Shown: positions 7,370-61,745 of the stretch, piece after piece | How the letters are laid out: every line of letters starts with the position of its first letter | Position numbering within the stretch: the first letter of the stretch is position 1 | Source: Eledone cirrhosa | Lineage: Eukaryota | Assembly (NCBI GenBank): GCA_964016885.1 | Contig: OZ024743.1 | Location: 242,668,001-242,732,000, forward strand | Reading direction: 5' to 3' | Length of the DNA stretch: 64,000 nucleotides | Program-made: the position numbers and the translations under genes | The notes under the pieces: model-generated | What the model was told of the DNA's origin: nothing | The model's input: only the letters and a program-made list of their open reading frames with translations | Databases searched by the model: none

Positions 7370-7400
<31 letters not shown>

Positions 7401-9626: not shown

Positions 9627-9775
9627 ATATTACATGAAATACATAGCAAACTGGATATACCTTCTTAGGTTCTCCGAGTTTCCTGAAGTATGTTTATTTT
9701 ACCTCATTCTTCAGCCTTCATATATATATATGTTGTGTGTGTGTGTGCGTGTGTGTGTTTGTGTGTGCTTGTGTA

Positions 9776-13336: not shown

Positions 13337-13935
13337 ATGGTGGCTGTCAACTCGTTTTCGAGTACGGCCACTACTTTATATCCATGTAGGAGAACCCCTA
13401 CCGATGCGCTGAACGAGTGTGACTTTTTAGTCCAGCCAGCGACTTGAAAACTCTGGTACAAACACTACACTTGTGACAATTATTGACACAGTGCTGGGCC
13501 CATGGTACCATGTGACGACAAGTGCAGAGAGATCTCCAAATATAAAGCAATACCGTGAAGCTTTTATAGTGAGCAAAGTCAATGCACAAAGCCAGTCCCA
13601 CTCTCTTAACCAAGATGATATTTACCAAAAAGAAGAACAAGTCAACATCATTGGATACCATCAGGGTTGCAGGTGTTATATCAGAGTTTTCCTTCTCCTA
13701 GAATTCTGCCTTGACAAAGGCTAAGGAGTCATCTCTCCCGGTGATTTTGGATGGCCATTGACTCTTAAGAGCTCCTTTGCCCTTACAGGTTTTGTTTTTA
13801 GTCCTGCAGGATGTCCAAAGTCACCCTCCTCACCAAGAAACCTTGGTGGAGTTGCCAGTTTAGTCGCCAACGACCCGACCATGAGACAGGTTGTACTGGG
13901 ATACATGTTACCAGTAGCACCAACTGGTGACCTGA
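13337..13935 (-). mobile_element. Non-autonomous RTE derivative (~600 bp; 5' leader fused to a zinc-finger-bearing 3' end), (TATG)n tail
   Basis: Near-identical to 48710-49301. Its leader is homologous to the 5' end of the RTE at 48460-48655. It carries the RTE UTR motif CTAGGAGAAGGAAAACTCTG and the peptide CSVCTRVFKSLAGLKSHTRSAH. Confidence 0.85.
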
Positions 13936-13982
13936 CATACATACATACATACATACATACATACATACATACATACATACAT

Positions 13983-14017
<35 letters not shown>

Positions 14018-14029
14018 ATACATACATAC

Positions 14030-14557
14030 ATGATGGCTGCCCCCTCGTTATCGAGTATGGCCATTGCACGATATACCATTATTAATAATTATTAATTAAT
14101 TCTATCGTGCAATGCCTGTGCGTGAAGATATTTTTTTAAAGTGAGGAAAGACTGTGCACTGAGCCAATCCCACTCTCTGAGTGACAGTAGCTATAACCCG
14201 AAAAGAAGAAAACATCAACATCATCGGTAACTACTGAGCCGCAGGTTTTATATCGGAGTTATCCCAGTTTCCTGAGTTGCCTTCTCCTAGAAGAATGCCC
14301 TGACAATGGCTAGGGGTCCTTCACTCCCAGTGGTTTAACCGCGCGGTACATGTGTATATATATATTTACAAACTTTCGGATGGCCGGTGACTCTTATGAG
14401 TTCTTCCGCCCTTTGTCATGTTTTGTTTTTTGTCCTGCAGGGTGTCCAAAATCACCCGCTTTACCAAGTAAACTTGGTGGGATTGCCGGTTTAGTCGCCG
14501 ACGACCCGACCATGCGACAGGTTGTATTGGGTTACATGTTACCATTAGCACTCAAGA
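14030..14557 (-). mobile_element. Second, diverged non-autonomous RTE derivative
   Basis: Same leader (GGTAACATGTA...GTCGTCGGCGACTAAACCGG) with a different 3' end; flanked by (CATA)n. Confidence 0.8.
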
Positions 14558-14592
14558 TACATACATACATACATACATACATACATACATAC

Positions 14593-14733
14593 ATGGTGGC
14601 TGCCAACTCGTTTTCGAGTACGGCCACTACTTTATATCCATGTAGGAGAACCCCTACCGATGCGCTGAACGAGTGTGACTTTTTAGTCCAGACAGTGATT
14701 TGAAAACTCTGGTACAAACACTACACTTGTGAC
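14593..14733 (-). mobile_element. 5'-truncated copy of the 13337 element
   Basis: Matches 13337-13477; (CATA)n on both sides. Confidence 0.85.
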
Positions 14734-14804
14734 ACATACATACATACATACATACATACATACATACATACATACATACATACATACATACATACATACA
14801 TACA

Positions 14805-14835
<31 letters not shown>

Positions 14836-30474: not shown

Positions 30475-30526
30475 TATCCCGGGTTCAATCGGGTGTAATC
30501 ACAGTAAGTAAGGTACTCAATACATA

Positions 30527-30566
30527 GATTTCCTGATGATTTTCCCCGAATGAAACAGTTCGAGTC
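30527..30566 (+). ncRNA. Candidate hammerhead
   Basis: GATTTC-CTGATGA-tTTTCcccGAAt-GAAA-CAGT-TC-GAGTC; the core is intact but the stems are weak. Confidence 0.4.
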
Positions 30567-30607
30567 ATGTAGAAGCCATTTCTATATTAAAAATATATAT
30601 ATGTATA

Positions 30608-33600
30608 TCCATCCACCACCCCCCGCCCATCCCTATGACCTCCCTACACCCGTCCCACCACTCTCCACCACCTCCACCCCTCCACCACCCCACACCCCTT
30701 TCCAATCTCCACCCTCCACCTCCCCCCTCACACACCCAAACCCCACCACTTGTTGTCACCATACCCCCTGACCTCCCCCTCTCCGCACCTGAGCTCTCAC
30801 TCCTCAGTATAGGCCTTCGCTTCATACCCCACACTCCGCACAGCGATGAGTTCCGCACCCGAACGGAAGTCGAGCGATTCGTGCGACGCACGAAGCTACA
30901 GGGACATTTCGGCCGAACGCCACCGGCTCCGGACGCCCCAGACCCGTTTCTCGCCCTGGGCCGACGACCATCGTCTTGGACGCCGGCCCGAGGGCAATTT
31001 AGCACCCTGGACGCGTTCGTCGATGCCTGTCGTAGCGCAGTAAATCGCTTCGACTTCCGCCACCGGTCGAAACGGCATAACATCTCACGGGGCGAACTCC
31101 TCGCTCTCCGCTCCCTCCGTAGCCGAGATTACATCGTCATCAAACCGGCGGACAAGGGAGGCGCCGTGGTGGTGTGGCGCGCTGAACTCTACACGGCTGA
31201 AGCCCTCAGGCAGCTCCGTAACCCCCTCTTCTACCGCCCTCTACCCTCCGATCCCACACTCCTCCACCATCCAATACCTTGTCTCCTCCTACCTCCTCCC
31301 CCACCGGTTCCCACCTCATCGTCCGCACCGCCCGCACCCCACTATCTACTTCCTCCCCAAACTCCACAAACCCGACAACCCCGGCCGCCCCATAGTCTCC
31401 GCTTACAACTGCCCCACCGAACTCATCTCCGTCTTTCTTGACTCCATCCTCGCCCCCCTCGTCACCACCCTCCCCTCCCACATCTCCGACACCAACCACG
31501 CCCTTCGCCTATTCGACTCCTTCACATTCCCACCCGTCTTACAGCCCTTCCTCTTCACCCTAGATATCAAGTCGCTCTATACTGTCATCCCCCACGCCGA
31601 CGGCCTACGTGCCCTCAAGCACTACTTCGACCTTCGCCCCTCCCCCATCACCTCCACTCCTACCCACCTTCGCCTCGCCGAGCTGGTCCTCACCCTCAAC
31701 TGTTTCTCCTTCTCGGGTGAGTTTTACCAACAGGTCACGGGGATAGCCATGGGCACAAGAATGGGCCCAAACTATGCCAACCTTTTCGTTGGCATAGTTT
31801 GGGCCCACGTACACAGGCCCCACGCCCGAACTGTACGGTCGTTACATCGACGACTGTATCGGAGCCACGACCCTCACCCGAGAACAGCTCGACTCCTTTC
31901 TCTCCTTCTTCTGCTCCTTCCACCCCTCCCTCCACTTCACCACCTCTATCTCCACCACCCACGTCCACTTCTTAGACGTCTCCGTCGCCTTCGACCCCTC
32001 CCAACACTCCCTCGTCACCTCCGCCTTCTTCAAACCCACCGTCTCCCACTCCTATCTCGACTTCACCTCCTCCCACCCTTCACACACTAAACACTCTATT
32101 CCCTACTCCCAACTCCTCAGAATCGGCCGCCTCTGTAGCCGAAATGCTGACTTTGAGTCCCAGGCCCTTTCCCTAGTCAGCCATTTCATCCGCAGAGGTT
32201 ACCCCCCTCCCCTCCCTCGTCCACACCGCCCTCACTCGCGCCCGTGCTGTCCACCGCTCCACCGCCCTCACTCGCGCCCGTGCTGTCCACCGCTCCACCA
32301 CCCTCACCCCACGCCACCGCACACCCACCCACCGTCTCCCCTTCCCCATCACCGCACCCCTCCACCGCACCCCTCCACCGCACCATTCTCCGCCTCTTCC
32401 AACGCCTCCAGTCCGACCCCTCCACCTGCCACATCTTCCCAGCCCCACCACTCCCCTCCTTCAAACGCGCACGCAATCTCCGCAGCCTCCTCGTCCACAG
32501 CTCCCTACCCCCTAACCCACGCCCCCCCCCCGGTTCCCTTCCCTGTTCCAGGCCTCGTTGCAACACCTGTCCCCACATTACCAGCACCACCACCTTCCAG
32601 GGCCCCAACGGCCACTCTCTCTCTGTCCGACACGCGTTCCGCTGCACCTCCTCCAACCTAGTCTATGGACTTCGCTGCACGGAGTTTAGCGCAACCTACG
32701 TCGGACAGACTGGACGTCGCCTGGCGGACCGTTTTACCGAACACCTCCGGGATATTCGTCTCGGCGGGAGTTCCCCCATCGTCCGCCACTTTGGCTCCCC
32801 TGGACATTCCGCGCTCCACCTCACAGTCTGTGGCCTACTCCAATGCCACGGAACACCCGCCACCCTCCTCAGGGTCGAACAGCGCACCATCTTCACCCTA
32901 CAGACCCACACTCCCCCCGGCCTGAACTCCCCACCCCTATCCCTTTAGCCTTCGACCGCCCTGTTCCTCCCTCGCCCCCCCCCCCCGTCACACATATCCC
33001 CCACTAACACCACTAACACACTCCTCCTTTTCACCGCCCACCCCACAACTAACAATACTAACACCCCCACCCCACCCTCGACCACCCTCCCCCAACTAAC
33101 AATACTAACATTCTTTCCCCCTTCCCCCTTCCCCTCCCCCTATCACGCACACACCCACCGGTACATATATACACGCACTCACACTAACCACACACCCTAC
33201 TACCACCACTAACCCTCACCCGCACATCCACTCCACAGCTAATAACACTAACATACCCCCGACCCACGCACACGAACACACACACCCACCCACACCCACT
33301 TACACCACCCACTCTACACACCCTACCACCACCGACCCCCACTAACACACCCGCATTGAGCCCTTTCCCCACCACCAGTATACTAACACCCACTAATACC
33401 CCCTTCACCACACACACACACTCATCCAAACACGCACACACACATCAGTACACTACACTCCCTCCACCGTCCCCCACACCTTTCTCTCCCTCTCCCCGCT
33501 CCACCCACACCCCTTCACACACACACCACTAACACCTCTACTAATACACACCCCCTCTCCCCGCATGACCCCCTCCTCACTCCACCTTTCACACCTACCC

Positions 33601-34500
33601 ATCCTCTCCCCTGTGTACCGCAACTCCGCACACACTGACACACCGACTTTCTCCACCTGCCATTCTCCCCTACTGCTGCTATGCCCTGACCCTGTGACCA
33701 CCTCTCCGCACACACAGACACACACAGCCCTCTCCGCCTGTCCTTCTCCTCTACCCTCCTCCTGCCTTGACCCTCTGACCATTTCCTGTTGCGCGCGCAC
33801 CCCACATCTACCCTCTTCCGACCAACCCAACTACGGATTACACACATTGGACATCGCCCCCACGAATCAACTCCATCACAAGGAAAATATCCGGCAACTC
33901 ACCACACCCTCTATGGAACTACCTTAGGAACTTACCCACGGACATACACTCACAAAAATGTTTTTTCCCACACGCCACCTACATCCACAATACGTATAAA
34001 CACCACACACACGTGCGTACCCCCACATATTTACACACTCAGCCTCCGGAATCCTCTCCCACCCCTCTGACCCCATCCCCATCCACAAGCGCACACACAC
34101 ACCGACCTACACCCCACCCCACACACACACCTTTTCCTGAACATGGAACCTCTTTCTTCCCCCAACTCTCACATTCACATACACACACACACACACATAC
34201 ACGTACACCTACACACACACACACACCACCTTCAGCCCTCCCCGCTCGGACACCCCGCCTCCCTCTCCCCACTCCACCCGCCACCACCCCTACACCCTTC
34301 CACCATTTGTTTATCTTCATGTTTATTTTTTTTTTTTATATTCATTTTCATTTGTACCCCTTCCACCGTTTCCTCTCCCCCCACCCCTTTTTTCTAAATG
34401 TCTCTCCCCCACTCCCCTATACACCCTTAGAACTCTCTTCCCACACACTTTTTGCCTGAAGAAGGGCTTATGCCCGAAACGTCGTTACCCCCTTTTCAGC
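30608..34500 (+). mobile_element. Penelope-like retroelement with a frameshifted ORF (30635-32948) and long 3' UTR
   Basis: IVIKPADKGGAVVVW, GIAMGTRMGPNYANLFVG, YGRYIDDCIG, CSRPRCNTC linker and LVYGLRC...YVGQTGRRLADRFTEH (GIY-YIG). Confidence 0.95.
34453..34486 (+). ncRNA. Minimal type-I hammerhead at the PLE 3' end
   Basis: CTGAAGA-A-GGGC-ttat-GCCC-GAAA-CG-TC; stem I is very short. Confidence 0.75.
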
Positions 34501-36153: not shown

Positions 36154-36261
36154 TATATATACATTTTTTTTATTATGCTATCTGCCCTTTCCTAAGGGGT
36201 TAACACATCGAGATTCTTCGCATCTGGTAAAAAAACTGGTATTTATTCATCTCCTTTATAT

Positions 36262-36450
36262 ATAATTGTTTCTACTTTTGGCAGAAGGCCAGAAATTATT
36301 CCAGTGCATTACTGGTACTTTATTTTATCGACCCCGTAAGGATGAAAGGCAAAGTTAACCTCGGCGGGATTTGAACTCAGATCATAAAGGGAGGTAACTC
36401 TATGCTTCAAAGCATGGCGCCCGACCCTCTACCAATACTGTCAATCCACC
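36262..36450 (-). mobile_element. tRNA-derived SINE
   Basis: Reverse complement of the 2058 unit. Confidence 0.9.
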
Positions 36451-36875
36451 GATAATGGCTATTGGTGAGATTTATCACTCTAAAGTTTCACCTGCGCACT
36501 CACAGGATCACCAGTCTTGTCTGGTGAGTACACAGGTGAGACTCTACTTCAGTTTTTAGTTTTCATTCTTACGTCCGTCAATAAATCACGCACTCTCAGG
36601 TCTTGAAGAATCGTCCCCACACTCGATTATAAATTTGTCAGATTCCCCCACCCCCACCCGCTTATTAAATTTTGCTAATCTATCTCCGGCGAAATGTTAT
36701 TATAACTGATTAATATTGATACAGCAGCTGGAGAATATAATAATAATTTTATTTTACATTGAAAAAAAACATATATGACAAAAAAACATTACAAGAAATC
36801 CCATATTTACCCTATACAATTACTGATTTCCCCTTATCAATACCTATCTCTATCATCCTCTCACTCTATTTATTA

Positions 36876-43420: not shown

Positions 43421-43583
43421 ATTTAGTGTAATTATGAATGTGTAATATATAAGACGAATATGTTTTATGTAACATAAGGTGGAGTGAGTGACTTTTGGTG
43501 GAGGGTAAGGGGGAGAGCATGTAAATACTTATTTCTACAATCATATATAAAATGATTGCATATATATATATATATGTATATAT

Positions 43584-44369
43584 ATACAAATTTTAGTACA
43601 GCATTAACGAAGCTTTAGGATGCGGCTAAGCTAACGAATGCAGTTAGCACTCGATGGAGAATAATACCCCAGAGTTATAACAATACGTTTAGACAGCTTT
43701 GCAAATCAAATATAGCGACCAGCAGTCCAGCCGCATTGCCATAGCAACGAAAAAAACTGAACTCAGGGAAAGATTTTGACTGACCTGGACCATCACGTGT
43801 ACATCGAATGCAACATGCAACACATAACGCATATCGTATAGCATACAATATACATCACATATAACATACAACATCCACGCTAGGTTTCTGTAAATCCGAG
43901 ATCGACTAATTCCGTTTGCAGGGGTCTGCAAGTTAATGGCCTTGACAACAGAACAAAGGATTTACTTTACAAGTCTTGCGTTCTATAGCCTCGGCGGGTG
44001 TGTTTTCTAGCAGTAATTTACGCTATAGACACGTGGTTTTCTCAAAGGGAGGTAACCCCCGTTTTGGCGGTGAATTCGAAATTTGGGACAAAGGGATGAA
44101 ATTCCCTTAAACAAACCGAATTAAGCACTCAACCAGAAGTTATCAAACAGACATAAACAATTAATCAATCAATAGAATTGTCTAATTAAATTAATCAGTT
44201 AATCGTTAATTCTAGGAGTTAAAAATACAAATTTTAGTACAGCATTAACGAAGCTTTAGGCTGCGGCTAAGCTAACGAATGCAGATTCGGAATACAGCTT
44301 AGCACTCGATGGAGAATAATACCCCAGAGTTATAACAATACGTTTAGACAGCTTTGCAAATCAAATATA
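43584..44369. mobile_element. Non-coding element with ~130-145-bp direct terminal repeats in (TA)n
   Basis: 43584-43714 matches 44225-44369, the second copy having a 14-bp extra segment. Confidence 0.7.
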
Positions 44370-44741
44370 TATATATATATATATATATGCAATCATGTTA
44401 TATATGATTGTAGAAATAAGTATTTATATATATATGTGTATATATGTACATACATATATATATATATGTACATATACATACATACTTACATACATACATA
44501 TACACATATATAAATATATAATATTATATATATATATAATATTATATATATATGTGTGTGTGTGTGTGTTTCTATATACACACATGCGTGTGTGCGTATG
44601 TCTGTGTATGTGTGGTGAACATATATATACATTACAGAAGCAAATAAATGTAAACATGCAAACAAAAATACATGTATACAAGAATATGCATGTGTGTGCG
44701 CGTAAATACACGCACGCGTGCATACGTACGTACATACATAC

Positions 44742-47700
44742 ATGATGGTTGCAAACTCTGCCAAGTGTATTGCAATCGCTTGTCAAATTCAGATGTGGGA
44801 CGCTCGGATATGGCTTTTCAAGCCTACTAGAGATTTGCACTCCTTCACACACTGACGACAACTATGGATCTCCCTGGCTTGAGGTCCTGCATCAGGTTGC
44901 CCGTGAACCCTCACAACACTGGGGAGATCATAGTTCACTGGTTCTCTTTGAACATGACTGCGACTGTGGCTCCTGAGACCAGATTTGCTCAAGCAAAATT
45001 TTCCACACTCAGGGCACTTCAATTCAATGGAGACACCGATCTCTTCGAGAGATACACCAGGGCATTGCTTACGCACATCCTGTTTGATCTTCTCGTGCTC
45101 TATGCCTCTGTCCTCAAAATTATGGACCCCATGATTCACCATTCCACGCCAAGTTTCTCTTTCAAGAGCTTCTATCTCCCAGTCAGCCATCATCAGACCA
45201 GTTTTTTTTCAATGAGTCCTTTACACAATCCTTGAATCGGAGCTTTGGCTTGTGAGGTGGTCTCTTACCCTCACAAAGTTCGCCATACAAAAGTTGTTTT
45301 GGGATTCGATCATGCTCCATTCTGCAGAGGTGTCCGGTCCATCGCAAACGCCGTTGGTGGATGATACTCGCAATGCTCCGACACTCACTTCTCTCAAGGA
45401 CCTCAACATCACTCACATGCATCTGCCACTTGATACCGAGTATCTGTCTGAGACACTGCTGGTGAAACCATTCCAGTCTGTGGATATGCCGTTTGTAGGC
45501 AACCCATGTCTCACATGCATACAGCAAAACTGACAGTACACGTGCAACATACACTCACACCTTGGTCTTCATTGTGATTCCTCGCCTGCACCAAAGACGG
45601 CCGCTGAGCCTTCCAAATGACTCGCCTTACTAACACGTAGACCAACTTCTGCATCCAGAGAGCAGTTCACACTCAGAGTACTCCCCAAATACACAAATGT
45701 GTCAGCAGCCTTCAGCTTTTGACCGTATACGTGTATGGAGGGTTCATTGAAAACTTTATCCGGAGCAGGTTGGTACATGACGATAGTCTTCTTCAGACTG
45801 ATTGTCAGTCCCAAAGCACTGCACGCATTGGAAAAAGAATCCATAAGGTGTTGCATGTCACTCTGGGAGTGTGCAAAGAGATCACAATCATCTGCATGTA
45901 AAAATTCTCTGATCAAGGTACTCGGTACCTTAGTGTTGGCAGTGAGACGCCTAAGGTTAAACAGCCTGCCGGAAGTGCGATATCTGAGATAGATACCGTG
46001 TTGACAATCCTTGAAGGCCATGAAGAACACCATCGCGAAATACAAGGCAAACAAAGTCGGTGCAGGTATATCACCGTTTGACACCATTTTCAACCGAGAT
46101 TGGCTCAGACAGTTTACCTCCAACATTCACCCATGCCTGCATGTCATCGTGGAAGAGTTTCATAATGTTCACAGACTTTTCAGGATAGCCCAATCTGTCC
46201 AAAATAACCCACAAAGCCTTCCGATTAACGGTGTCAAATGCCTTGGTCAGATCGACAAAAACTTGGTATAAGTCCATGCGCTGCTCAATGAATTTCTCTT
46301 GAAGCTCTTTGGCCGAGAAGATCATGTCAACAGTGCTTCTGCCATTCCTAAAGCCACATTGTGACTCAGGAAGTACCTCAACAGTAATGTGCTGTATCAA
46401 TCTGTCCAACAAAATCCTGCACAAGATCTTCCCAGCCACAGATAGCAGTGAAATACCTCTGTAGTTGCCACAGTCATCTTTGGCTCCCTTTCCTTTGTAA
46501 AGTTCCACCATCAATATATCTTTCCAGTCCTGTGGCACATCTTCTTCATTCCAAACATTCACAAAGAGATCAGTGAGGCGGTTTAAGAAGTTATCACCAG
46601 CACACGTGAAAATCTCGGCACTCAGTCCATCCGCTGTATAAGTTGGCAATGGCCTTCGCCACCTCATCAAATGAAGGAGGATCAGCCATTGCCAGCTTTG
46701 TAGGTTTGGATGGAATCGACCGGATGAACACATCATCAATTTCTGATGGTCTGTTGAGAAGCTCATCAAAGTGGCCATGCCACCTGATCAGGATTTCCTT
46801 CGGATCTCTGAGCAATTCCTTGCGGTCCCCGGAACGAAGTGGTGATATTTGTGAACCTGTCGGACCATACACCTCCCTGAGCAGACTGTATAGGAGCTTT
46901 GTATCATATCTATCTGAGGCCTTCTGGATTTCATCAGCCTTTTGGCTCCACCAGGTATCCTGCATGGCTCTCAATCGATGTTGCACAAGTGCCTTGATCT
47001 GCCTGAAGGTCCGGTCACTCCCGTCAGAACGTGTCTCACACAACAATGATGTCAGCACTTTTTGCTTCTCTTCAAGCAAGGTCTGGATCATTGGATCATT
47101 TTCATCGAACCAGTCTTTATGCTTTCTATTGGTATGACCCAAAACTCCAGCTCTAACATCATAGACGGTTTTCTTCAATGATTCCCAAGTGTTTTCACAT
47201 TCCATGGACTCAGGGGACCTCGACTTTCTCTGTTTTCAGACGAGCCACGTTTAGTTGTTTTGGAAGTGCAACATTCTTCCCCCTTATTTTGGGCTTCACA
47301 ACAAATTAAAACTTGGCGCGCACCAGACGATGATCAGTCCAATATTCCGCGCCTCGCAATACACGAACCAACGTGATATCCCTGATATCACGTTTTCTCG
47401 TTAAAACAAAGTCAATAAGTCTTGGAACCTGGATGCACCCAAGTTGTCTTTCTGCTGAAAGAGCGTGTTCCCAACAACCATATCCATCTCAGTGCACATC
47501 TGCAACAGAAGTAGACCATTGTTATTGCACTTACCTACTCCATGCCATCCCATCACACTCCAAGCTTCCCAGTCATTACCAACACGTGCATTAAAATCAC
47601 CAAGGATGACAATCTTGTCTGCATAAGGTATACCATGGATGACGTCTCTCAAAGACATGTAGAAACTTAGTTTTTCATCATCACTAGCACACATAGTAGC

Positions 47701-48655
47701 AGCGTACACACTGATCAGATTCACAAAGCGGTTTTGAATCAGAGGGACTCTCATGGACATTATCCTATCATTAAATCCACAAGTAAGATTTTCCAACTTT
47801 GAGACGATTCCATTCCTGACTGCAAATGCGACCCCTGCCTCTCTCCTACAACCCTTTTCTCCACCACTCCAATAGAAGGTATATCCTCCCTTCTGTTCTG
47901 TGAATTGACCCTCACGTGCCAATCTCGTTTCTGAAAGAGTAACGATGTCCATGCTATAGTGATTGAGTTCCCTCGACACCAAAGCAGATCTTCTTTCAGG
48001 GCGAGTTTTACTGGACTGGGAATCCAGCAAAGTTCATACATTCCAACATCCAATATTCAGAGGTTTGAACCTCCTTGCAGTTGTAAGATGACGACCGGGC
48101 CCACGCTGCGGTGCCATGGGACACCTGCCGAATCAGACCCCTTCACAATAAGTTCCAGAGCCCTTACTGCCATTGACTTCAAGGTTATTATCTGTTATCA
48201 TAGAGTTTGGTGCACTTTTAGGCTACGGCCAGCCACACGAACCTGTAACAGATCCTGAACAAGCGATACCTGTGCTTTGAAGGTTTTAAGTGGGGAAAAG
48301 CCTTGCACGCGACCAATCCCACTCTCTGAGCATCTAAAACGCTACCCGAAAAGGAGAACTGGTCAACATCATCCGATGCTCCCAAAACCGCATCGGATGT
48401 TGTGACAACAACAGGGGGCCCTTCACGCCCAGGTTTTAAAAAAAAAAAAAAAAAAAGTACTATTTGGATGACCGTTGACTCTGCTGAGTTCCTCCGCCAT
48501 TTGCCGGGTCTTGTATTTCATCCCGCAGGGTGTCCAAATATCACCCTCATCACCAAGCAAGCTTGGTGGGGTTGCCGGTTTAGTCGCCGACGACTCGACC
48601 ATGAGACAGGTAGTACTGGGGTACATGTTACCAGTAACACTCGAGAGCAATCTGA
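44742..48655 (-). mobile_element. Full-length RTE (BovB-like) LINE, decayed: 5' leader, AP endonuclease, RT, two C2H2-like fingers, (TATG)n tail
   Basis: APE motifs LSETRL and ILGDFNARVG; RT motifs NYRGISLLS, PESQCGFR, FVDLTKAFDTV and LHADD; C-terminal CPECGKFCLSKSGLRSHSRSH and CRQCVKECKSLVGLKSHIRASH; multiple frameshifts. Confidence 0.95.
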
Positions 48656-48709
48656 CATAACATACATACATACATTCACACATATATACATACATGCATG
48701 CATACATAC

Positions 48710-49301
48710 ATGGTGGCTGCCAACTCGTTTTCGAGTACGGCCACTACTTTATATCCATGTAGGAGAACCCCTACTGATGCGCTGAACGAGTGTGACTTTT
48801 TAGTCCAGCCAGCGACTTGAAAACTCTGGTACAAACACTACACTTGTGACAATTATTGACACATAGTGCTGGGCCCATGGTACCATGTGACGACAAGTGC
48901 AGAGAGATCTCCAGATATAAAGCAATGCATGTGCCGTGAAGCTTCTATAGTGAGCAAAGGCACTGCACAAAGCCAGTCCCACTCTCTTAACCGAGAACAA
49001 GTCAACATCATTGGATACCATCAGAGTTGCTGGTGTTATATCAGAGTTTTCCTTCTCCTAGCCTAGAATTCTGCTTGTCAAAGGCTAAGGGGTCATCTCT
49101 CCCGGTGATTTTGGATGGCCATTGACTCTTAAGAGCTCCTTTGCCCTTTTACAGGTTTTGTTTTTAGTCCTGCAGGATGTCCAAAGTCACCCTCCTCACC
49201 AAGAAACCTTGGTGGGATTGCCAGTTTAGTCGCCAACGACCCGACCATGAGACAGGTTGTACTGGGATACACGTTACCAGTAGCACCAACGGGTGACCTG
49301 A
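48710..49301 (-). mobile_element. Non-autonomous RTE derivative
   Basis: Near-identical to 13337-13935; (CATA)n on both sides. Confidence 0.88.
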
Positions 49302-49514
49302 CATACATACATACACACATACATTCATACATACATACGTACACACATACGTATATACATACATACATCTATACATACATCTATACATACATCTATACAT
49401 ACATACATACATACATACGTACACACGTACATACACACTTACATACATACATACACACACACACACATACATACATACATATATACATACATACATGCAC
49501 ACATACATACATGC

Positions 49515-52500
49515 AATAGACAGTCAACGCGATCAGTCGCGTATTTTGGCGTGGGAGACTATTTATTAAATTTAAGATGAATACTATCTCCGACAGTAAT
49601 GCCACAACTACAGCCAGGTTGAATAACTGGTTATTCTTCTAACTATCCCTTCTGAAGACACCTTTTATTCGAATTCGTAGAGATATCCGACTAAATACAT
49701 AATTCATTTTACAAGGATTTGCTACAAACAGCATGGCTGAACACAACATCAACATAAAAATTAAGGAAGTATCGAAGACAAATAACAAAGAAGGTAATCA
49801 AACTTTATTCAGTTGTAGCTACAGAAGAAACCGAAATTATAAATCGCATTTCTCTTGGAGTTGCGAACTTAATAATGATTTATTTAATTGTTATAAAATG
49901 GCAAAAAACAATCCCTCCATTGGCTATATGAATAGAATGAAGCTACACTGGGACGAAATGCACCCAGAGCTAAATTATTTCACAGCGAAACAATTACGCC
50001 AACAAGCGACGTTTGTTGAACGTAAAAATAAGATAAATATTATTAATTGTAAGTCCCCCACAACAAACATGGAATCAACAACACGTGCTACAGATCGCTA
50101 TGCTACTAGACTTCCTAGCAGCCAGGTCGAACAGCGCCTTGAAACAACTATGCCTGTAAGAAACTTGACACCACCTGTACCATCTAAGTCTACCTCGAAT
50201 GCTGGAGAAAACACTATCGATAATAATAATAATCGAAGAAATAATAATAATAATCGAATAAATGGGACACCACGTATACCATCCGAGTCTACCTCGACTG
50301 TTGTGGGAAATACTATAGATAATGATAATCAAAAGTATAAACAATTGAAAATTTCCCTCAGGGAAATCTTCCAGAGAGAAATTAACTCATGTATAAATAT
50401 CTCTCTTGTTGAACGTGTTAAAACGACAATGGTGAATAACAAACCAAATAATGAAATACTACGTGTTATTGATGAAATAGGGGATGAATATATAAAAACC
50501 CCAACATTTTGGCAAATCAACGTCTGTTTATATGCCTTAGCAATGACAGTGAAGCATTATCTTGGTGATAGCAGAGATATTAACAAGAACAAAACACCAC
50601 CAAAAATACCATCATATATAACTAAAATAGAAAAAAGAGTGTTGACCTACGAAAAAACATAGGACATGTGACAATGCTCCTTACATGCAAACAAACACAA
50701 AAAAAACCTCACTCCTCACCAACAAAGAGTGAAAAATAAAATAGAGACGATGTTTGGTAACAGTAGAACCAGAACTCTCCAATATAAGCTGATCACCCTC
50801 AAACAAGAATTGAGAGCTGTTAACGAAAAACGCCGATACCTGAAGAAGGTAGATGAGAGAAAAGTGCCTAATAAAAGATTCAGACGAAACCAAACTTCAG
50901 TCTATAGAGATATGAAGGGCAAAATAATAAGTGTCACTGAGGCCCCATCCCAGAAAGACATAGATTCCTTTTGGAGAAAAATATGGGGTGAAAAGAAGAA
51001 TTTCAACCAAGATGCAGTGTGGCTAAGAGAAATCCGAAAGAACTATTGCTCCTACACTTCAACAAAAACATACGAAATAAGTGAGGGTACCCTTGAGACT
51101 GATAGGAAAACTCCAAGATAAGAAAACACCAGGAAGAGACATGATTGTCGGCTACTGGTACAAAAAAATAACATTCTATCGGAGGTATCTTACTGACCTC
51201 TACCAACAATGGTGGACATTAGCACAAACGTTACTGGTCCCCAACAACAAAGACACCCACTTGGCAAAAAAACTACCGACCCATTGCATGCCAGAACCTG
51301 ATGTATAAGATGTATACAGCCTGCCTGAACCTATTCCTCCAAGATCACTGTGAAAATAATATCATCACAGATGAACAAGCAGCTGGAAAGAAAGGGGTTT
51401 GGGGATGTGCTGAACAACTCCTAATCAACAAAACTGCGATGTCGGAGGTGCGACAACTTAGGAGGAATATGACTACAGTCTGGCTGGACTACAGGAAAGC
51501 TTTCGATTCTGTTCCCCACTCTTGGATGATAGAGGCCCTCCAACTTGCTAAAGTCCCAGACATTATTGTCAGAGCCGTAGAGAGGCTGTCTTCTCTTGGG
51601 CTACTATCCTAAGTTTAAAGACAGAGAGGGAGGACTCTATTTTCACTGATAAAATAAAATATTGCAGGGGTATATTTCAGGGGGATAGTCTCTCTGTGAT
51701 ATTGTTCGTCTTGTCATTAAACCCCTTGTCCTTTCTGCTCAAGAAATGTGAGGGATACATCATTGGCTCACAGGAGGACAGAAATACGAACCTAACCCGT
51801 AATTTCTTTGTGGAAGATCTGAAACTCTATGCCAAGAACATGGATGGGATGAAGAAAAATCATGACATGGTTACAACGTTCTCAAAGGATATAGCAATGG
51901 AGTTTGGCCAAGATAAATGCTCATACATGACTGTAAAGCGGGGAAAAACAACAACCCAATCTAGCAACATTGTCATCAATGGTCTAACTGTTTCACCGAT
52001 ATCTGATGAGGACTGCTACAGATACCTGGGGATAGATGAGAACATATCCTATAATGGTATCTGTAATAAAGAACGCGTATCCAGGGAATACTACACCCGA
52101 TTAAGAAAGATCTGGTCATCGGAACTCTCTGCGCAAAACAAAACAGTGGCTCACAATGTGTTTGCTGCGCCTGTCCTAACACCAACGTTTGGAATACTCA
52201 ATTGGACGATAGACGAAATCCGAGCAGTTGATGTTGGAACTCGAAAAATACTGAACAACACCGGAAACTTCCACATCAACAGTGACATAGACCGCCTTTA
52301 CTTGAAACGTAAGCAGGGAGGCAGAGGCCTAACATCAGTCCAGACAACATTTGAATGTCGCATCATATCTCTCTGACAACATCTACGAACCTCGAAGCGT
52401 AGGAGCCCGTTTCTCGAGCAAGTCTATCTGCATGAAACAGATAAGATCATGAGAGTTGGGAAGGAACTCCTTGAGAGATATTCCTGTGTGATAATCAAAA

Positions 52501-53603
52501 ACTCACACCCAGGGATGTCGCTCAGCAGTATCGCAGTGAATCCATGGATGAAAAACTGCATGCCTATCAGCAAAAAATCATGCATGGATATGTTGCCAGG
52601 AAGCTCCAGAGTGAGAGTAATGTAGATAAGGAAAGTAGTCTATCTTGGACCAACAACTGCTATATTGGCTCCCACTTTGAAGGATACGCTTTTGCTATCC
52701 AAGAACAGGAGATTAACACGAAATACCTGATTCACAAAAGAGATAGGGATGCAGGCAAAACACCTAGATGTGATAACAAGTGCAGTCTCTGCAGAACTAA
52801 CATCGAGGATATCACCAATGTCATCAGCAGCTGTCCAAAGATGTCATCGCGGTACTATCTACCTTTGAGGCATGATGTAGTGGCCAAAACACTGTACAAT
52901 GCAGTTCGTAAAAAAGATAGCCCCGATAATAAACACATTAAAAGCTACAACAATGTGGAAGACATCCATGTACATAATATGAAAGAATACTGGTGGAATG
53001 TTCCAGTAAAAACCTCAATAAAATGCAGGCATAACAGACCAGATATTATGATATGGGACAGGAAGAAGAAAACATGCCCAGTAGTGGAAATTAGCTGCCC
53101 AGCAGATGCCAATATAATATCAAAGATTAGTGAAAAGGAGAATATTTATGCAGAACTGATGAGAAATCTGCAGATACTCCACCCTGATTACACCTTCAGA
53201 TTTATGCCTGTGATTATTGGGGCACTGGGATATGTTAGTAACTGCCTCAATACAAATCTTGAGAAGCTAGGCTTCACAGGAACAGAAAGAACACAACTAG
53301 TTAGGAAATTACAAGTACAATCCATTAATGGAACAGTAAAAATATGTAAAACATTCCAAAAATGTTGCATCTAATAACTGCATATACACATGTACAGATA
53401 TAAAGCATATACACATGCACACATACAACTCAAAACATCCACATCCACACATACAATAACATCCATATCTACACATGCATGCATACATACATATCTACCT
53501 AGTTGATGTTGTGTAAATTCCAATGAGAGAGTCTTGTGTCTATGTTAAAAACCGACTCTCTCTCTCTCTATTGGTAAAACTTTGTGAAATTATAAAACCA
53601 GAA
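49515..53603 (+). mobile_element. Full-length R4/Dong-clade non-LTR retrotransposon (RT plus restriction-like endonuclease), frameshifted
   Basis: N-terminal GYMNRMKLHWDEMHP..T.KQLRQQ; RT WLDYRKAFDSVPHSW, GIFQGDSLS and FVEDLKLY; knuckle CSLC...ISSC, RHD, and RPDIMIWD...VVEISCP. ORF pieces span 49733-53374. Confidence 0.92.
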
Positions 53604-54244
53604 CATACATACATACATACATACATACATACATACATACATACATACATACATACATACGTATTCACACAAGCTTTTATTACAAATTGTTTTGTTACAG
53701 GTGTTGTTCTTGTTAATGTTAGAAAATGTTGTTGATGTTATTGTAACTGTTGTTGTTGTTGTTGTTACTGATTTTGTTGCTGCTACTATTAGTCTAGTTA
53801 TTGTTGCTGTTGATATTTCTGATATTATTTACCAAGCTGATGACTTTGTAAAGTAACCTGAGATTGATTTGAAGAAGTATATAGACAAAATTGAAGATCG
53901 CTGTTAGAAACACTGGTTTCTATTTATTTTTGTTGTTGTTGCTGTTTATGTTTTGTATTTTGTTTGTGTGTTTTGTTTTATTTTTGATCTTTTCAGATTT
54001 GTTTGTTTCTTTTTTTAATTTTTTTTTTATTTTCTTTGGTGTCATTGTTGAAAGAAATTCCGTAGAGTATATTGTACTGAGAGGGAGGGGGGGGGGGAGT
54101 TTGTGCGTAGAGGGTGAGTGAGTGAAACTGAAGCCAATGAGTGTGAAAGAGAGCGACAAGAGATATTAAGAGAAAGATTTGTGTCGGTGACCAAAATTAC
54201 TCGACAGATTTATACCACTCAGAGTTATTTCCCTTACAATGTCA

Positions 54245-55035: not shown

Positions 55036-55269
55036 CAATGTCGTGACATATGGTGTGGATTGTTATCGGGGACCATCACTCGACAGGTCTGAATACAGCC
55101 GAATTTTTCCATATATTTCTTTCTACTATGTGTGTATGCGTGTGTCTGTCTGTAAGCATGCGCGTGTGTATGTGCGCGAATGTCTATGTGCGTGTGTGTA
55201 TATATGTATACATACAAAATACATACATATATACATAAATACATACATAAATACATACACACATACATA

Positions 55270-55335
55270 CATACACATGCACGCATACATAATCTACCTA
55301 GTTGATGTTGTGTAAATTCCAATTCTATGCTAGAA

Positions 55336-55395
<60 letters not shown>
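55270..55395 (+). mobile_element. Second 3'-UTR fragment of the R4/Dong family
   Basis: ATCTACCTAGTTGATGTTGTGTAAATTCCAAT...AAACCGACTCTCTC matches 53493-53568; followed by (CATA)n. Confidence 0.8.
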
Positions 55396-55399
<4 letters not shown>

Positions 55400-55412
55400 C
55401 ATACATATATAA

Positions 55413-55443
<31 letters not shown>

Positions 55444-55465
55444 CATACATACATACATACATACA

Positions 55466-55496
<31 letters not shown>

Positions 55497-55617: not shown

Positions 55618-58600
55618 ACATATACACGCACATGCACAGCTGCATATACCTATACAGTCATACACACATGCACAGCTGCATATACCTATACAATCATACA
55701 CACATACACAGCTGTACATACATATACAGTCATACACACATGCACAGCTGCATATACCTATACAATCATACACACATGCACAGCTGCATATACCTATACA
55801 ATCATACACACATGCACAGCTGCATATACCTATACAGTCATACACACATGCACAGCTGTACATACCTATGCAGTCATACACACATGCACAGCTGCATATA
55901 CCTATACAGTCATACACACATGCACAGCTGCATATACCTATACAGTCATACACACATGCACAGCTGCATATACCTATACAGTCATACACACATGCACAGC
56001 TGCATATACCTATACAGTCATACACACATGCACAGCTTCATATACCTATGCAGTCATACACACATGCACAGCTGCATATACCTATACAATCATACACACA
56101 TGCACAGCTGCATATACCTATGCAGTCATACACACATGCACAGCTGTACATACCTATACAGTCATACACACATGCACAGCTGCATATACCTATACAGTCA
56201 TACACACATGCACAGATGTACATATACCTATACAGTCATACACACATACACAGCTGCATATACCTATACAGTCATACACACATGCACAGCTGTACATACC
56301 TATACAGTAATACACACATGCACAGCTGCATATACCTATACAGTCATACACACATCACAGCTGCATATACCTATACAGTCATACACACATGCACAGCTGC
56401 ATATACCTATACAGTAATACACACATGCACAGCTGCATATACCTATACAGTCATACACACACACACAGCTGCATATACCTATACAGTCATACACACATGC
56501 ACAGCTGCATATACCTATACAGTAATACACACATGCACAGCTGCATATACCTATACAGTCATACACGCATACATAGCTGCATATACCTATACAGTCATAC
56601 ACGCATACACAGCTGCATATACCTATACAGTTATACACACATGCACAGCTACATATACCTATACAGTCATACACGCATACACAGCTGCATATACCTATAC
56701 AGTTATACACACATGCACAGCTGTATATACCTATGCAGTCATACACACATGCACCACACATGCACAGCTGTACATACCTATACAGTCATACACACATGCA
56801 CCACACATGCACAGCTGTACATACCTATACAGTCATACACACATGCACAGCTGTACATACCTATATAGTCATACACACATGCATAGCTGTACATACCTAT
56901 ACAGTCATACACACATACACAGCTGCATATACCTATACAGTCATACACACATACACAGCTGCATATACCTATACAGTCATACACACATGAACGGCTGTAC
57001 ATATACCTATACAGCCATACACACATGCACAGCTGTATATACCTATACAGTCATACACACATGCACAGCTGCGTATACCTATACAGTCATACACACATGC
57101 ACAGCTGCATATACCTATACAGTCATACACATATGCACAGCTGTACATACCTATACAGTCATACACACATGCACAGCTGCATATACCTATACAGTCATAC
57201 ACACATGCACAGCTGTACATAAACCTATACAGTAATACACACATGCACAGCTGTACATACCTATACAGTCATACACACATGCACAGCTGCATATACCTAT
57301 ACAGTCATACACACATGCACAGCTGTATATACCTATACAGTCATACACACATACACAGCTGTACATACCTATACAGTCATACACACATGCACAGCTGCAT
57401 ATACCTATACAGTCATACCCACATGCACAGTTGTACATACCTATACAGTCATACACACATGCACAGCTGCATATACCTATACAGTCATACACACATGCAC
57501 AGCTGTATATACCTATACAGTCATACACACATACACAGCTGTACATACCTATACAGTCATACACACATGCACAGCTGCATATACCTATACAGTCATACAC
57601 ACATGCACAGCTGTACATATACCTATACAGTAATACACACATGCACAGCTGTACATACCTATACAGTCATACACACATGCACAGCTGCATATACCTATAT
57701 AGTCATACACACATGCACAGCTGTACATACCTATACAGTCATACACACATGCACAGCTGCATATACCTATACAGTCATACACACATGCACAGCTGTATAT
57801 ACCTATACAGTCATACACACATACACAGCTGCATATACCTATACAGTCATACACGCATACACAGCTGCATATACCTATACAGTTATACACACATGCACAG
57901 CTGCATATACCTATACAGTAATACACACATGCACAGCTGCATATACCTATACAGTCATACACACATACACAGCTGCATATACCTATACAGTCATACACAC
58001 ATGCACAGCTGTATATACCTATACAGTCTTACACACATACACAGCTGCATATACATATACAGTTATACACACATGCACAGCTGCATATACCTATACAGCC
58101 ATACACACATGCACAGCTGTACATACCTATACAGTAATACACACATGCACAGCTGCATATACCTATACAGTCATACACACATACACAGCTGCATATACCT
58201 ATACAGTCATACACACATGCACAGCTGTACATACCTATACAGTAATACACACATGCACAGCTGCATATACCTATACAGTCATACACACATCACAGCTGCA
58301 TATACCTATACAGTCATACACACATGCACAGCTGCATATACCTATACAGTAATACACACATGCACAGCTGCATATACCTATACAGTCATACACACATACA
58401 CAGCTGCATATACCTATACAGTCATACACACATGCACAGCTGCATATACCTATACAGTAATACACACATGCACAGCTGCATATACCTATACAGTCATACA
58501 CGCATACACAGCTGCATATACCTATACAGTCATACACGCATACACAGCTGCAGGATATACCTATACAGTTATACACACATGCACAGCTGTATATACCTAT

Positions 58601-61600
58601 GCAGTCATACACACATGCACCACACATGCACAGCTGTACATACCTATACAGTCATACACACATGCACCACACATGCACAGCTGTACATACCTATACAGTC
58701 ATACACACATGCACAGCTGTACATACCTATATAGTCATACACACATGCACAGCTGTATATACCTATACAGTCATACACACATACACAGCTGCATATACCT
58801 ATACAGTCATACACACATGCACAGCTGCATATACCTATACAGTCATACACACATGCACAGCTGTACATACCTATACAGTCATACACACATGCACAGCTGC
58901 GTATACCTATACAGTCATACACACATGCACAGCTGCATATACCTATACAGTCATACACATATGCACAGCTGTACATACCTATACAATCATACACACATGC
59001 ACAGCTGCATATACCTATACAGTCATACACACATGCACAGCTGTACATATACCTATACAGTAATACACACATGCACAGCTGTACATACCTATACAGTCAT
59101 ACACACATACACAGCTGCATATACCTATACAGTCATACACACATGCACAGCTGCATATACCTATACAGTCATACCCACATGCACAGCTGTACATACCTAT
59201 ACAGTCATACACACATGCACAGCTGCATATACCTATACAGTCATACACACATGCACAGCTGTATATACCTATACAGTCATACACACATGCACAGCTGCAT
59301 ATACCTATACAGTCATACACACATGCACAGCTGCATATACCTATACAGTCATTCACACATGCACAGCTGCATATACCTATACAGTTATACACACATGCAC
59401 AGCTGCATATACCTATACAGTTATACACACATGCACAGCTGCATATACCTATACAGTCATACACACATGCATAGCTGTACATACCTATACAGTCATACAC
59501 ACATGCACAGCTGCATATACCTATACAGTCATACACACATGCACAGCTGCATATACCTATACAGTCATACACACATGCACAGCTGTATATACCTATACAG
59601 TCATACACATATGCACAGCTGTATATACCTATACAGTCATACACACATACACAGCTGCATATACCTATACAGTCATACACACATGCACAGCTGCATATAC
59701 CTATACAGTAATACACACATGCACAGCTGTACATACCTATACAGTCATACACACATACACAGCTGCATATACCTATACAGTCATACACACATGCACAGCT
59801 GCATATACCTATACAGTCATACACACATGCACAGCTGTACATACCTATACAGTCATACACACATGCACAGCTGCATATACCTATACAGTCATACACACAT
59901 GCACAGCTGTACATATACCTATACAGTAATACACACATGCACAGCTGTACATACCTATACAGTCATACACACATACACAGCTTCATATACCTATACAGTC
60001 ATACACACATGCACAGCTGCATATACCTATACAGTCATACACACATGCACAGCTGTACATACCTATACAGTCATACACGCATGCACAGCTGCATATACCT
60101 ATACAGTCATACACACATGCACAGCTGTATATACCTATACAGTCATACACACATGCACAGCTGCATATACCTATACAGTCATACACACATGCACAGCTGC
60201 ATATACCTATACAGTCATACACACATGCACAGCTGCATATACCTATACAGTTATACACACATGCACAGCTGCATATACCTATACAGTTATACACACATGC
60301 ACAGCTGCATATACCTATACAGTCATACACACATGCATAGCTGTACATACCTATACAGTCATACACACATGCACAGCTGCATATACCTATACAGTCATAC
60401 ACACATGCACAGCTGCATATACCTATACAGTCATACACACATGCACAGCTGTATATACCTATACAGTCATACACATATGCACAGCTGTATATACCTATAC
60501 AGTCATACACACATACACAGCTGCATATACCTATACAGTCATACACACATGCACAGCTGCATATACCTATACAGTCATACACACATGCACAGCTGTACAT
60601 ACCTATACAGTCATACACACATGCACAGCTGCATATACCTATACAGTCATACACACATGCACAGCTGCATATACCTATACAGTCATACACACATGCACAG
60701 CTGTATATACCTATACAGTCATACACATATGCACAGCTGTATATACATATACAGTCATACACACATACACAGCTGCATATACCTATACAGTCATACACAC
60801 ATGCACAGCTGCATATACCTATACAGTCATACACACATGCACAGCTGTACATACCTATACAGTCATACACACATGCACAGCTGCATATACCTATACAGTC
60901 ATACACACATGCACAGCTGTACATACCTATACAGTAATACACACATGCACAGCTGTATATACCTATACAGTCATACACACATGCACAGCTGTACATACCT
61001 ATACAGTAATACACACATGCACAGCTGTATATACCTATACAGTCATACACACATGCACAGCTGCATATACCTATACAGTCATACACACATGCACAGCTGC
61101 ATATACCTATACAGTTATACACACATGCACAGCTGCATATACCTATACAGTCATACACACATGCACAGCTGCATATACCTATACAGTCATACACACATAC
61201 ACAGCTGCATATACCTATACAGTCATACACACATGCACAGCTGCATATACCTATACAGTCATACACACATACACAGCTGCATATACCTATACAGTCATAC
61301 ACACATGCACAGCTGCATATACCTATACAGTCATACACACATGCACAGCTGTATATACCTATACAGTCATACACACATGCACAGCTGCATATACCTATAC
61401 AGTTATACACACATGCACAACTGTACATACCTATGCAGTCATACACACATGCACAGCTGTACATATCTATACAGTCATACACATATGCACAGCTGTATAT
61501 ACCTATACAGTCATACATATATGCACAGCTGTACATACCTATACAGCCATACACACATATGCACAGCTGCATATACCTATACAGTCATACACACATGCAC

Positions 61601-61745
61601 AGCTGCATATACCTATACAGTCATACACACATGCACAGCTGTACATACCTATACAGCCATACACACATGCACAGCTGCATATACCTATACAGTCATACAC
61701 ACATACACAGCTGTACATACCTATACAATTATACACACATGCACG
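55618..61745. repeat. 36-bp minisatellite (CATACACACATGCACAGCTGCATATACCTATACAGT), about 170 copies
   Basis: 12-aa periodicity in several frames; about 6.1 kb divided by 36. Confidence 0.97.

Follow-up and report, generated by a model that had tools for sequence, protein, structure and literature searches.

Oppositely oriented RTE-type and R4/Dong-like retrotransposons occupy TATG/CATA microsatellites in Eledone cirrhosa

The window analysed here, a 64,000-nucleotide stretch of Eledone cirrhosa contig OZ024743.1, contains a contiguous array of approximately 9 kb in which a probable RTE-clade LINE and a non-coding RTE-type element on the reverse strand and an R4/Dong-like LINE on the forward strand are separated by CATA/TATG tracts (Table 1). 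The order, strands and contiguity agree with a sequence-only reading of the same DNA. Its claim that the repeat is present at every junction holds in that tracts are there, although on the left only three units are perfect, beside degenerate alternating sequence, and the middle tracts are degenerate. Both LINEs of the array carry stops and frameshifts.

Table 1 Elements and repeat tracts in the window
Feature	Position	Strand	Evidence or remarks
TATG, three units	44732..44743	-	Duplicated target site of the RTE (probable, 12 bp), 3' copy; identical in sequence to 48660-48671
RTE-clade LINE (probable), full-length, broken	44744..48659	-	Pfam; alignment to natural copy L203
Degenerate TATG spacer, 52 bp	48660..48711	-	RTE 5' duplication (probable) at 48660-48671; short element's 3' duplication (probable) at 48700-48711
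Non-coding bipartite RTE-type element, family A, 590 bp	48712..49301	-	Head and terminal hairpin in common with the RTE
Degenerate CATA tract between two heads, 211 bp	49302..49512		53 units, 79% matches
R4/Dong-like LINE, full-length, broken	about 49513/49520-53603	+	Translated motifs; alignment to natural copy L200
(CATA)14, Dong 3' junction	53604..53659	+	Sequence
Second array: family A, family B, 3' piece of A	13339..14834	all -	Separated by (CATA)16 and (CATA)8; followed by (CATA)25
Old Dong 3'-end fragment, 72%	55204..55495	+	Followed by (CATA)20

The window RTE is 92% identical to its natural copy and consists, in order, of a 5' untranslated region (UTR), an APE endonuclease, a reverse transcriptase (RT), two C-terminal C2H2-like motifs and a 3' hairpin; it begins with one out-of-phase TATG unit. 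Pfam searches of the broken pieces recovered PF03372 (E = 2 × 10−8) and PF00078 (E = 6 × 10−16). No intact copy was present among 8 fetched copies, but an intact relative (P0121, 69% identical) has APE and RT in a single 1,137-amino-acid open reading frame (ORF) and no ORF1, as is characteristic of RTE elements. The stop codon is followed by approximately 40 nt, the hairpin and the repeat, that is, by a short 3' UTR ending in a simple repeat. We assign the element provisionally to the RTE clade from this architecture and N-terminal motifs, the RT tree having been built without named references. RTE elements are usually described as dispersed and not choosy about their target; among non-LTR elements, target specificity is known from the RLE clades, R1 and Tx1. 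By the genome flank counts given below, the usual lack of marked target specificity, which is not a strict criterion for the clade, does not extend to this RTE.

The Dong element, 96% identical to its natural copy, encodes an N-terminal domain, RT, a CCHC knuckle, and an RHD and PD..E..K restriction-like endonuclease. The succession of RT, CCHC knuckle and C-terminal restriction-like endonuclease, read from motifs in the translations, is that of the R4/Dong group, as is insertion at a specific target (rDNA or a microsatellite). Matches in the PDB were to R2 proteins only, and no named R4/Dong element occurs among the 120 homologues listed. The predicted structure of the N terminus, where members of this group carry a SANT/Myb-like domain and no zinc fingers, includes a three-helix domain (residues 44–104, pLDDT 84–94), for which we found no Foldseek match at E ≤ 0.001 and no Pfam family. 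The (TAA)n target that defines Dong in the strict sense is replaced by (CATA)n, which two Dong families use in this genome, the second being approximately 68% identical in DNA over the piece compared.

The short element of the array belongs to family A, which has the bipartite structure of non-autonomous RTE elements: part of the RTE 5' region, the RTE 3' end and no ORF. Its alignment with the RTE is confined to the head (bases 16–193, approximately 84% identical), a second 5' piece (approximately 70%) and the terminal hairpin, besides which the two share an end motif; the term derivative, used in the sequence-only reading, therefore applies only loosely, and family A is a sister family of this RTE and no deletion copy of it. 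ARAGORN found no tRNA gene in the head, which corresponds to the RTE 5' UTR, so that family A is not a tRNA-derived SINE, and Rfam returned no family at the gathering score, its matches being repeat-driven miRNA only. The RTE and families A and B have the same 3' hairpin, which two metagenome relatives also carry. For family B, 15 of the 29 head matches were set aside owing to internal differences in a subfamily.

Tabulation of flanks, which the sequence-only reading had proposed to make genome-wide, shows for sampled copies and a 1-Mb genome sample that both clades are strongly enriched at the repeat in a strand-specific manner, truncated copies included. Of 50 full-length RTE-family copies, 29 have (TATG)3 within 28 nt on the 5' side, and of 31 5'-truncated copies 20 do (21 and 11, respectively, lack the strict motif); the reverse orientation was seen at 1 of 81. 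The background is 0.17% of 664,800 sampled positions with tandem (TATG)3 within 28 nt, taken from 1 Mb of evenly spaced genome stretches not chosen by similarity; in that sample (TATG)3 occurs at 4 of 10 RTE-family heads and 10 of 17 3' ends. The tie of this RTE lineage to (TATG)n, from which the sequence-only reading concluded that it inserts there, is thus more than chance; (TA)n is also used ((TA)6 at 9 of the 50 heads; TA at 4 of 10 heads in the 1-Mb sample, equal to TATG), and the preference is graded, not exclusive. For Dong, whose copies were gathered with a query from the element body, (CATA)3 precedes 26 of 28 heads and 9 of 15 truncated copies (5'-side CATA is absent from the other 6, and the 15 include two non-independent pairs, L165/L166 and L182/L183), never in reverse orientation. 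Neighbouring elements were taken from loci found by similarity search, whose copies are those most like the ones in the window: adjacent Dong/RTE pairs are in opposite orientation in 45 of 45 cases, RTE/RTE neighbours point the same way in 37 of 40 and Dong/Dong neighbours in 19 of 22, with spacers between stacked elements as short as 10–16 nt. The use of the same repeat by a second clade in the opposite orientation is thereby supported.

Deposition of (TATG)n as a tail by the RTE, also claimed from the sequence, is not supported in that form. The 3' tract mirrors the 5' flank and probably represents for the most part a target-site duplication of approximately 12 bp instead of a fixed deposit: matched 5' and 3' flanks agree over 11.7 nt, compared with 6.7 nt for mismatched pairs (0 of 20,000 permutations as good), duplication lengths being ambiguous inside perfect repeats. 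Variant units of the 5' flank recur in the 3' tract copy by copy, and at (TA)n targets the tract itself is (TA)n. Of 122 RTE-family 3' junctions, 118 start with AT and 77 with ATGT, whereas 27 continue with ATAT, for the most part in copies with little TATG in the 5' flank (TATG-rich 5' flanks in 47 of 66 ATGT-starting compared with 5 of 26 ATAT-starting copies; P = 1.3 × 10−5).

It is unlikely, given these 27 junctions and the copied variant units, that the RTE adds a (TATG)n tail copied from its RNA whenever it inserts, and in this way builds targets for itself and for Dong. The frequent ATGT starts are compatible with such writing, as are extra ATC units at 10 junctions, which indicate slippage at the RNA end, and the out-of-phase TATG start of several full-length copies (5 of 50 flanks end in TTATG). 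In a second RTE-like family, the L095 family, an added (GATA)n is plainly visible ahead of (TA)n, and the 3' UTR of an octopus RTE transcript is described as mostly microsatellite (PMC9115989). In a few copies (for example, L091 of family B, L137 and L229) an ATGT tail occurs without TATG on the 5' side, which fits a deposit or a later deletion. In the 1-Mb sample, 8 of the 12 tracts with 8 or more TATG units adjoin these families, compared with 8 of 587 long TA tracts; however, 58 of 79 TATG tracts of at least 3 units adjoin no library element. Copies with the same type of tail also fail to group in the phylogeny of copies (8 changes compared with 8.6–8.9 when shuffled, on a weak and nearly unresolved tree). 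Of the claim that each insertion creates a new target, the duplication of approximately 12 bp and the splitting of the tract remain, with at most occasional added units in place of a deposited tail.

A further explanation dispenses with RTE targeting: ordinary T^A cuts would be followed by retention of copies, or expansion of short seeds, in microsatellite-rich neutral DNA. The signature described for the RTE clade, a T-stretch plus TA with a tail-dependent first base (PMC6007223, PMC13295347), is in line with this, and (TA)6 is common here (5% in the 1-Mb sample). Other LINEs lie in (TA)n too: the L095 family does so in 5 of 9 cases, so that alternating repeats may to some degree be favoured generally in this genome. 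That family, tried as a negative control, was rejected for this reason and replaced by an abundant SINE, which in the 1-Mb sample shows no TATG at any of 76 heads or 93 tails. We regard the absence of targeting as improbable, because TATG is enriched approximately 340–380-fold at RTE-family flanks compared with 2–8-fold for TA, the polarity is strict, truncated copies, which lack the element's own 5' end, have the same flank, and long 5' tracts are already present at copies that are 98–99% alike. Finally, spread of the arrays as units, by segmental duplication or read-through retroposition of dimers, would account for a few locus pairs with common flanks (L072/L073, L071/L089, L224/L240) and for some spacers of just 11–16 nt, but is highly improbable in general and largely refuted for this window, as, among 116 loci, the outer flanks of the array in the window match no other and only 9 pairs share at least 300 bp outside the elements, array composition and truncation points vary by locus, and both head-to-head (26) and tail-to-tail (19) pairs are found.

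We consider it likely that target-primed reverse transcription placed each family independently in one TATG/CATA tract, which the RTE machinery probably opened opposite T^AT and the Dong enzyme on the other strand. The RTE endonuclease would nick the CATA strand, the 3' hairpin of the RNA and its terminal AU(GU) would pair with the freed end, and a second nick approximately 10–16 nt away would duplicate the target. On the sense strand, TAT is present in (TATG)n and (TA)n and absent from (CATA)n, a difference that would give rise to the polarity. By itself, TAT is too frequent to account for the strong bias to TATG over TA; a longer readout, by annealing of the RNA tail or by the C-terminal zinc fingers, may therefore be involved. 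Each insertion would split the tract and copy approximately three units, enough for the next insertion, so that stacks could grow without nesting.

Relatives from other hosts may extend this picture. None was found in a first metagenome scan; a metagenome RTE relative identified since (L278, 50–66% identical, same RT clade) has (TATG)13 at both ends. A candidate HDV-like fold at its 5' end starts at the last G of the tract, and 0 of 100 shuffles match the descriptor, which was written after the fold had been seen. This descriptor of a nested double pseudoknot, the form of the HDV-like 5' ribozymes of RTE, R4 and Dong elements, has no match in the RTE, family A, family B or Dong heads of this genome; a loose version matched a poly-T stretch only and was discarded, and RNAalifold on 15 heads gave hairpins without covariation support (term +0.18). 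We tentatively suggest, with rather less confidence than for independent insertion, that an old microsatellite-specific RTE branch exists in unrelated hosts, marked by the shared 3' hairpin, additional zinc fingers at the C terminus and (TATG)n on either side; that at least one member cuts itself from the host transcript through an HDV-like ribozyme whose first base is the last G of the tract; and that this branch and a CATA-specific Dong branch have converged on one repeat from opposite strands, yielding self-renewing polarized stacks.

We found no report of TATG/CATA targeting by RTE or Dong in the literature searched, although subscription papers, Repbase entries or supplements may hold one. 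A strand-specific RTE preference for (TATG)n beside an opposite-strand Dong offers a natural system for separating endonuclease readout, zinc-finger binding and RNA-tail annealing, the roles of which in target choice are left open in the accounts of PMC6007223 and PMC13295347. RTE proteins are under development as random gene writers, and RTE-1 is listed as 'Random' in target (PMC13708176); a repeat-seeking RTE is therefore of practical interest. Such a preference also makes long TATG tracts poor choices as single-locus markers in this genome.

Several known systems share parts of this arrangement. Dong elements of the R4 clade from Bombyx mori, an ostracod and a mollusc are described as having a CCHC knuckle and restriction-like endonuclease downstream of RT, and insert into microsatellites in one orientation (PMC7998251, PMC2887409), as here; however, their published target in most insects, molluscs and cnidarians is (TAA)n (PMC7998251), compared with (CATA)n used by two families here, and B. 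mori Dong self-cleaves through an HDV-like ribozyme (PMC3774820), whereas our descriptor found none in the Dong heads. RTE-2_OV of octopus resembles the window RTE by description, with one ORF for APE, RT and a C2H2 finger and a 3' microsatellite (PMC9115989). RTE-clade LINEs with a Tn-TA signature (Bov-B, plant RTE and the Sauria SINE) are described with a duplication that follows the tail and, as here, starts at an A preceded by T (PMC6007223, PMC13295347), but all of these are characterized either by a short signature at the site or by a lack of sequence specificity (PMC2887409), compared with a repeat 5' of approximately 60% of copies in fixed orientation here. Bipartite RTE elements (RTESINE, WALLSI3, Bov-A and the Ceph-SINE body) likewise combine part of the RTE 5' UTR with the 3' end and have no ORF (PMC5786205); unlike them, family A still has the outermost 5' sequence, lacks a tRNA head according to ARAGORN and resembles the RTE in the head and terminal hairpin only. 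Tx1 elements (Kibi, Koshi and the crocodilian TTCC/TTTC families) are also APE-type LINEs in microsatellites, including four-letter repeats, but belong to another clade and use other repeats (PMC4494074). The SaTar arrays of guayule and rice are similarly modular, non-nested stacks of unrelated elements in microsatellites; they are built from non-autonomous Mutator-like DNA transposons (PMC5907723), whereas those described here combine two retrotransposon clades with strand polarity.

The RTE-clade LINE, the short non-coding RTE-type element A and the R4/Dong-like LINE (hereafter Dong) lie in the window as the sequence-only reading described them, although all three are broken; no intact open reading frame occurs in any of the 12 Dong and 8 RTE copies retrieved. 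Identical 12-bp stretches (44732-44743 and 48660-48671) bracket the RTE, which begins with an out-of-phase TATG. The description of A as an RTE derivative holds for its head and terminal hairpin, which are common to both elements, and the rest of A is unmatched. About 140 bp immediately left of the array appear by eye to be directly duplicated (43573-43720 and 44221-44370). A 36-bp minisatellite (55629-61744; 168 copies, 92% matches) with abundant CATA-like units starts just past the old Dong tail. Elsewhere in the window are a 48-bp minisatellite with a strong G/T strand skew (5659-7724; 42 copies) and a C-skewed island of 55-64% GC at 30500-34000 that contains long open frames and matches no Pfam family.

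Features of the window (G000:C4:242668001-242732000; assembly of 3.0 Gb) and of single loci (L numbers)
Feature	Position	Strand	Description
RTE	44744-48659	-	APE (endonuclease) and RT pieces, two C2H2-like motifs, then stop and short 3′ UTR
Short element A	48712-49301	-	RTE match limited to head and terminal hairpin
Dong-like element	about 49513-53603	+	RT, CCHC knuckle, restriction-like endonuclease
Second array	13339-14834		Inside same window
Old Dong tail	55204-55495		Inside same window
Second RTE-like LINE	L241-L270 (e.g. L241:591-2953), L095:313-2518		
Candidate HDV-like ribozyme	L278:54-150		Exact 5′ end of metagenome RTE, from last G of (TATG)13; without Rfam entry

For other copies in the genome, 40 candidates per search were scored and 30 loci returned, with the window's own copy excluded; a copy was counted when, read on its sense strand, the 28 nt at its 5′ side contained a tandem (TATG)3. 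The repeat precedes 15/29 RTE heads, 7/13 full-length and 12/16 truncated A copies, 7/8 full-length and 5/6 truncated copies of the related family B (15/29 left out owing to an internal break), and 3/9 truncated RTEs (omitting 14 that reach the locus edge and 6 with internal breaks). The reverse orientation was found 5′ of 1/81 RTE-family copies (RTE, A and B). For Dong, (CATA)3 precedes 26/28 heads (1 more left out) and 9/15 truncated copies (11 at the edge and 3 others excluded; two pairs among the 15 are not independent), with the reverse orientation at none of these 28 and 15. Truncated copies matter most among these counts: because the 5′ terminus of the element is missing from them, the repeat at their 5′ side is host sequence. 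Under the working rule of more than 20% of flanks, as given in the available text of PMC4494074, both the RTE-family and Dong count as target-specific.

Across 100 evenly spaced 10-kb stretches of the genome, the background frequency is 0.17% for (TATG)3 and 5.1% for (TA)6, against which the flank enrichment of the tetramer is about 340- to 550-fold and that of TA 2- to 8-fold. In this unbiased 1 Mb, TATG adjoins 4/10 RTE-family heads and 10/17 3′ ends (TA, 4/10 and 4/17) and CATA adjoins 3/3 Dong 3′ ends; TATG is present at 0/76 heads and 0/93 tails of an abundant unrelated SINE used as a control. Viewed from the repeat, 8 of the 12 TATG tracts of at least 8 units, 21/79 of those of at least 3 units and 8/587 long TA tracts adjoin an RTE-family or Dong element. 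Scaling very roughly from 17 and 3 ends per Mb, the genome would hold ~50,000 RTE-family and ~9,000 Dong copies. The control repeat, SINE-like and 190 bp long, is very abundant in AT-rich sites, including window positions 9416-9645, 36255-36456 and many others.

The proposal that the RTE itself writes a (TATG)n tail and so builds its own targets mostly does not stand. A few RTE-family copies do have a TATG tail and no TATG upstream, a second RTE-like family of this genome adds (GATA)n, and an octopus RTE transcript is reported with a long microsatellite 3′ UTR (PMC9115989, text available in part). However, the 3′ tracts of A track the 5′ flanks copy by copy: in 29 copies the best match between flank end and tract start averages 11.7 nt, compared with 6.7 nt for mismatched pairs (reached in 0/20,000 permutations), and variant repeat units are copied between flanks at five loci (L134, L143, L145, L146 and L153). 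The bases after RTE-family ends begin with AT in 118/122 cases (77 ATGT, 27 ATAT, 10 ATCA), and, with 17/124 doubtful junctions removed, the 5′ flank is TATG-rich for 47/66 ATGT ends versus 5/26 ATAT ends (P = 1.3 × 10−5). Given this copying, the AT start and the association between flank and tail type, the 3′ tract is chiefly target duplication, with extra units now and then. Flank matching is weaker for Dong (9.8 versus 8.0 nt, P = 0.001; CATA lies 5′ of 38/55 copies in this set) and CATA follows the 3′ end in nearly all copies, so Dong may deposit some CATA units. Segmental duplication as the source of the arrays, which the sequence-only reading had set as a test, is largely ruled out because only 9 pairs among 116 loci have at least 300 bp in common outside the elements and the outer flanks of the window array match none of these loci.

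Neighbouring elements 8-200 nt apart across alternating repeat, in loci drawn from the searches rather than at random, are strictly polarised: Dong-type and RTE-type neighbours are oppositely oriented in 45/45 pairs, of which 26 meet head to head and 19 tail to tail, and same-direction neighbours make up 37/40 RTE/RTE and 19/22 Dong/Dong pairs. In two of the three RTE/RTE exceptions the spacer is TA-rich and nearly symmetric. Together with the flank counts, the opposed pairs uphold the claim of one target used by both clades in opposite orientations.

By analogy with established target-primed reverse transcription, the RTE APE would nick opposite T^AT, leaving a free AT to which the end of the RNA would anneal, a scheme already put forward for other RTEs in the accessible parts of PMC6007223 and PMC13295347. 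The polarity would follow because sense-strand TAT is present in (TATG)n and (TA)n and absent from (CATA)n. As TA is 30-fold commoner than TATG, the preference for TATG would need an extra readout, for which tail annealing and zinc-finger readout are candidates. A nested 3′ hairpin, its stem differing in sequence, is predicted for the RTE, for A and B and for two distant relatives (z −1.0 to −3.2). The restriction-like enzyme of Dong would nick the TATG strand. Every insertion would split the tract and copy about three units; the shortest spacers between neighbours, 10-16 nt, suggest that these are enough for the next insertion.

A quick RT tree of 58 of 80 metagenome RTE loci, built without named references, places metagenome loci L278 and L281 with the Eledone RTE family in a 10-row clade (SH-aLRT 100). 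At the 3′ end of both loci, (ATGT)n comes after the same type of hairpin and motif. Outside this clade tails are mostly other, with four CATA units in L277 and a short ATGT run in L348. A distant RTE relative, L347:580-4300, has (GT)n immediately at both ends and is possibly a GT-targeting element (single copy). (TATG)13 borders L278 at both ends, and an HDV-like descriptor fits its 5′ end, the first paired G being the last G of the tract (0/100 shuffles); the descriptor, composed after viewing the L278 fold, also gives a canonical-looking match in L276 and none in the Eledone heads. The putative ribozyme/tract boundary is thinly evidenced, by one full-length contig.

Further families occur in the Eledone genome. 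Internal-deletion RTE derivatives, in which bases 1-477 are fused to the last 47, form another non-autonomous family (L007, L009, L013, L014, L022, L023, L026 and L027). A B subfamily (L212, L218, L230, L232 and L238) has a ~90 bp internal TA/TG-rich insert resembling captured microsatellite flank. The second RTE-like LINE is young (copies 95-99% alike), encodes RT and DUF6451, is 28% identical to the first and ends in (GATA)n; its truncated copies have (TA)6 at 5/9 and TATG at 0/9 5′ junctions. A second Dong-like family (L075:1787-2399, L164:732-1344) is preceded by and ends in (CATA)n in the same orientation.

The literature searched, with subscription journals, Repbase and supplements outside its scope, holds no report of TATG/CATA targeting, and the available text of two octopus papers (PMC13282606, PMC9115989) reports RTE and Dong-R4 activity without giving targets. 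The mix of RTE, Dong-R4 and SINE in this genome resembles that described in PMC13282606 and, with one homologue named from Argonauta, fits an octopod host. As far as the accessible parts of the sources go, bipartite RTE elements (PMC5786205), microsatellite-specific Tx1 LINEs (PMC4494074) and plant DNA transposon stacks anchored in microsatellites (PMC5907723) are already known. Dong elements are published there as (TAA)n-specific (PMC7998251, PMC2887409), whereas the window-type Dong targets (CATA)n; RTE is described as not sequence-specific (PMC2887409, PMC13708176), whereas the Eledone RTE-family is tied to TATG in a fixed orientation. The polarised target common to RTE and Dong is real, and is a novel form of a known lifestyle.
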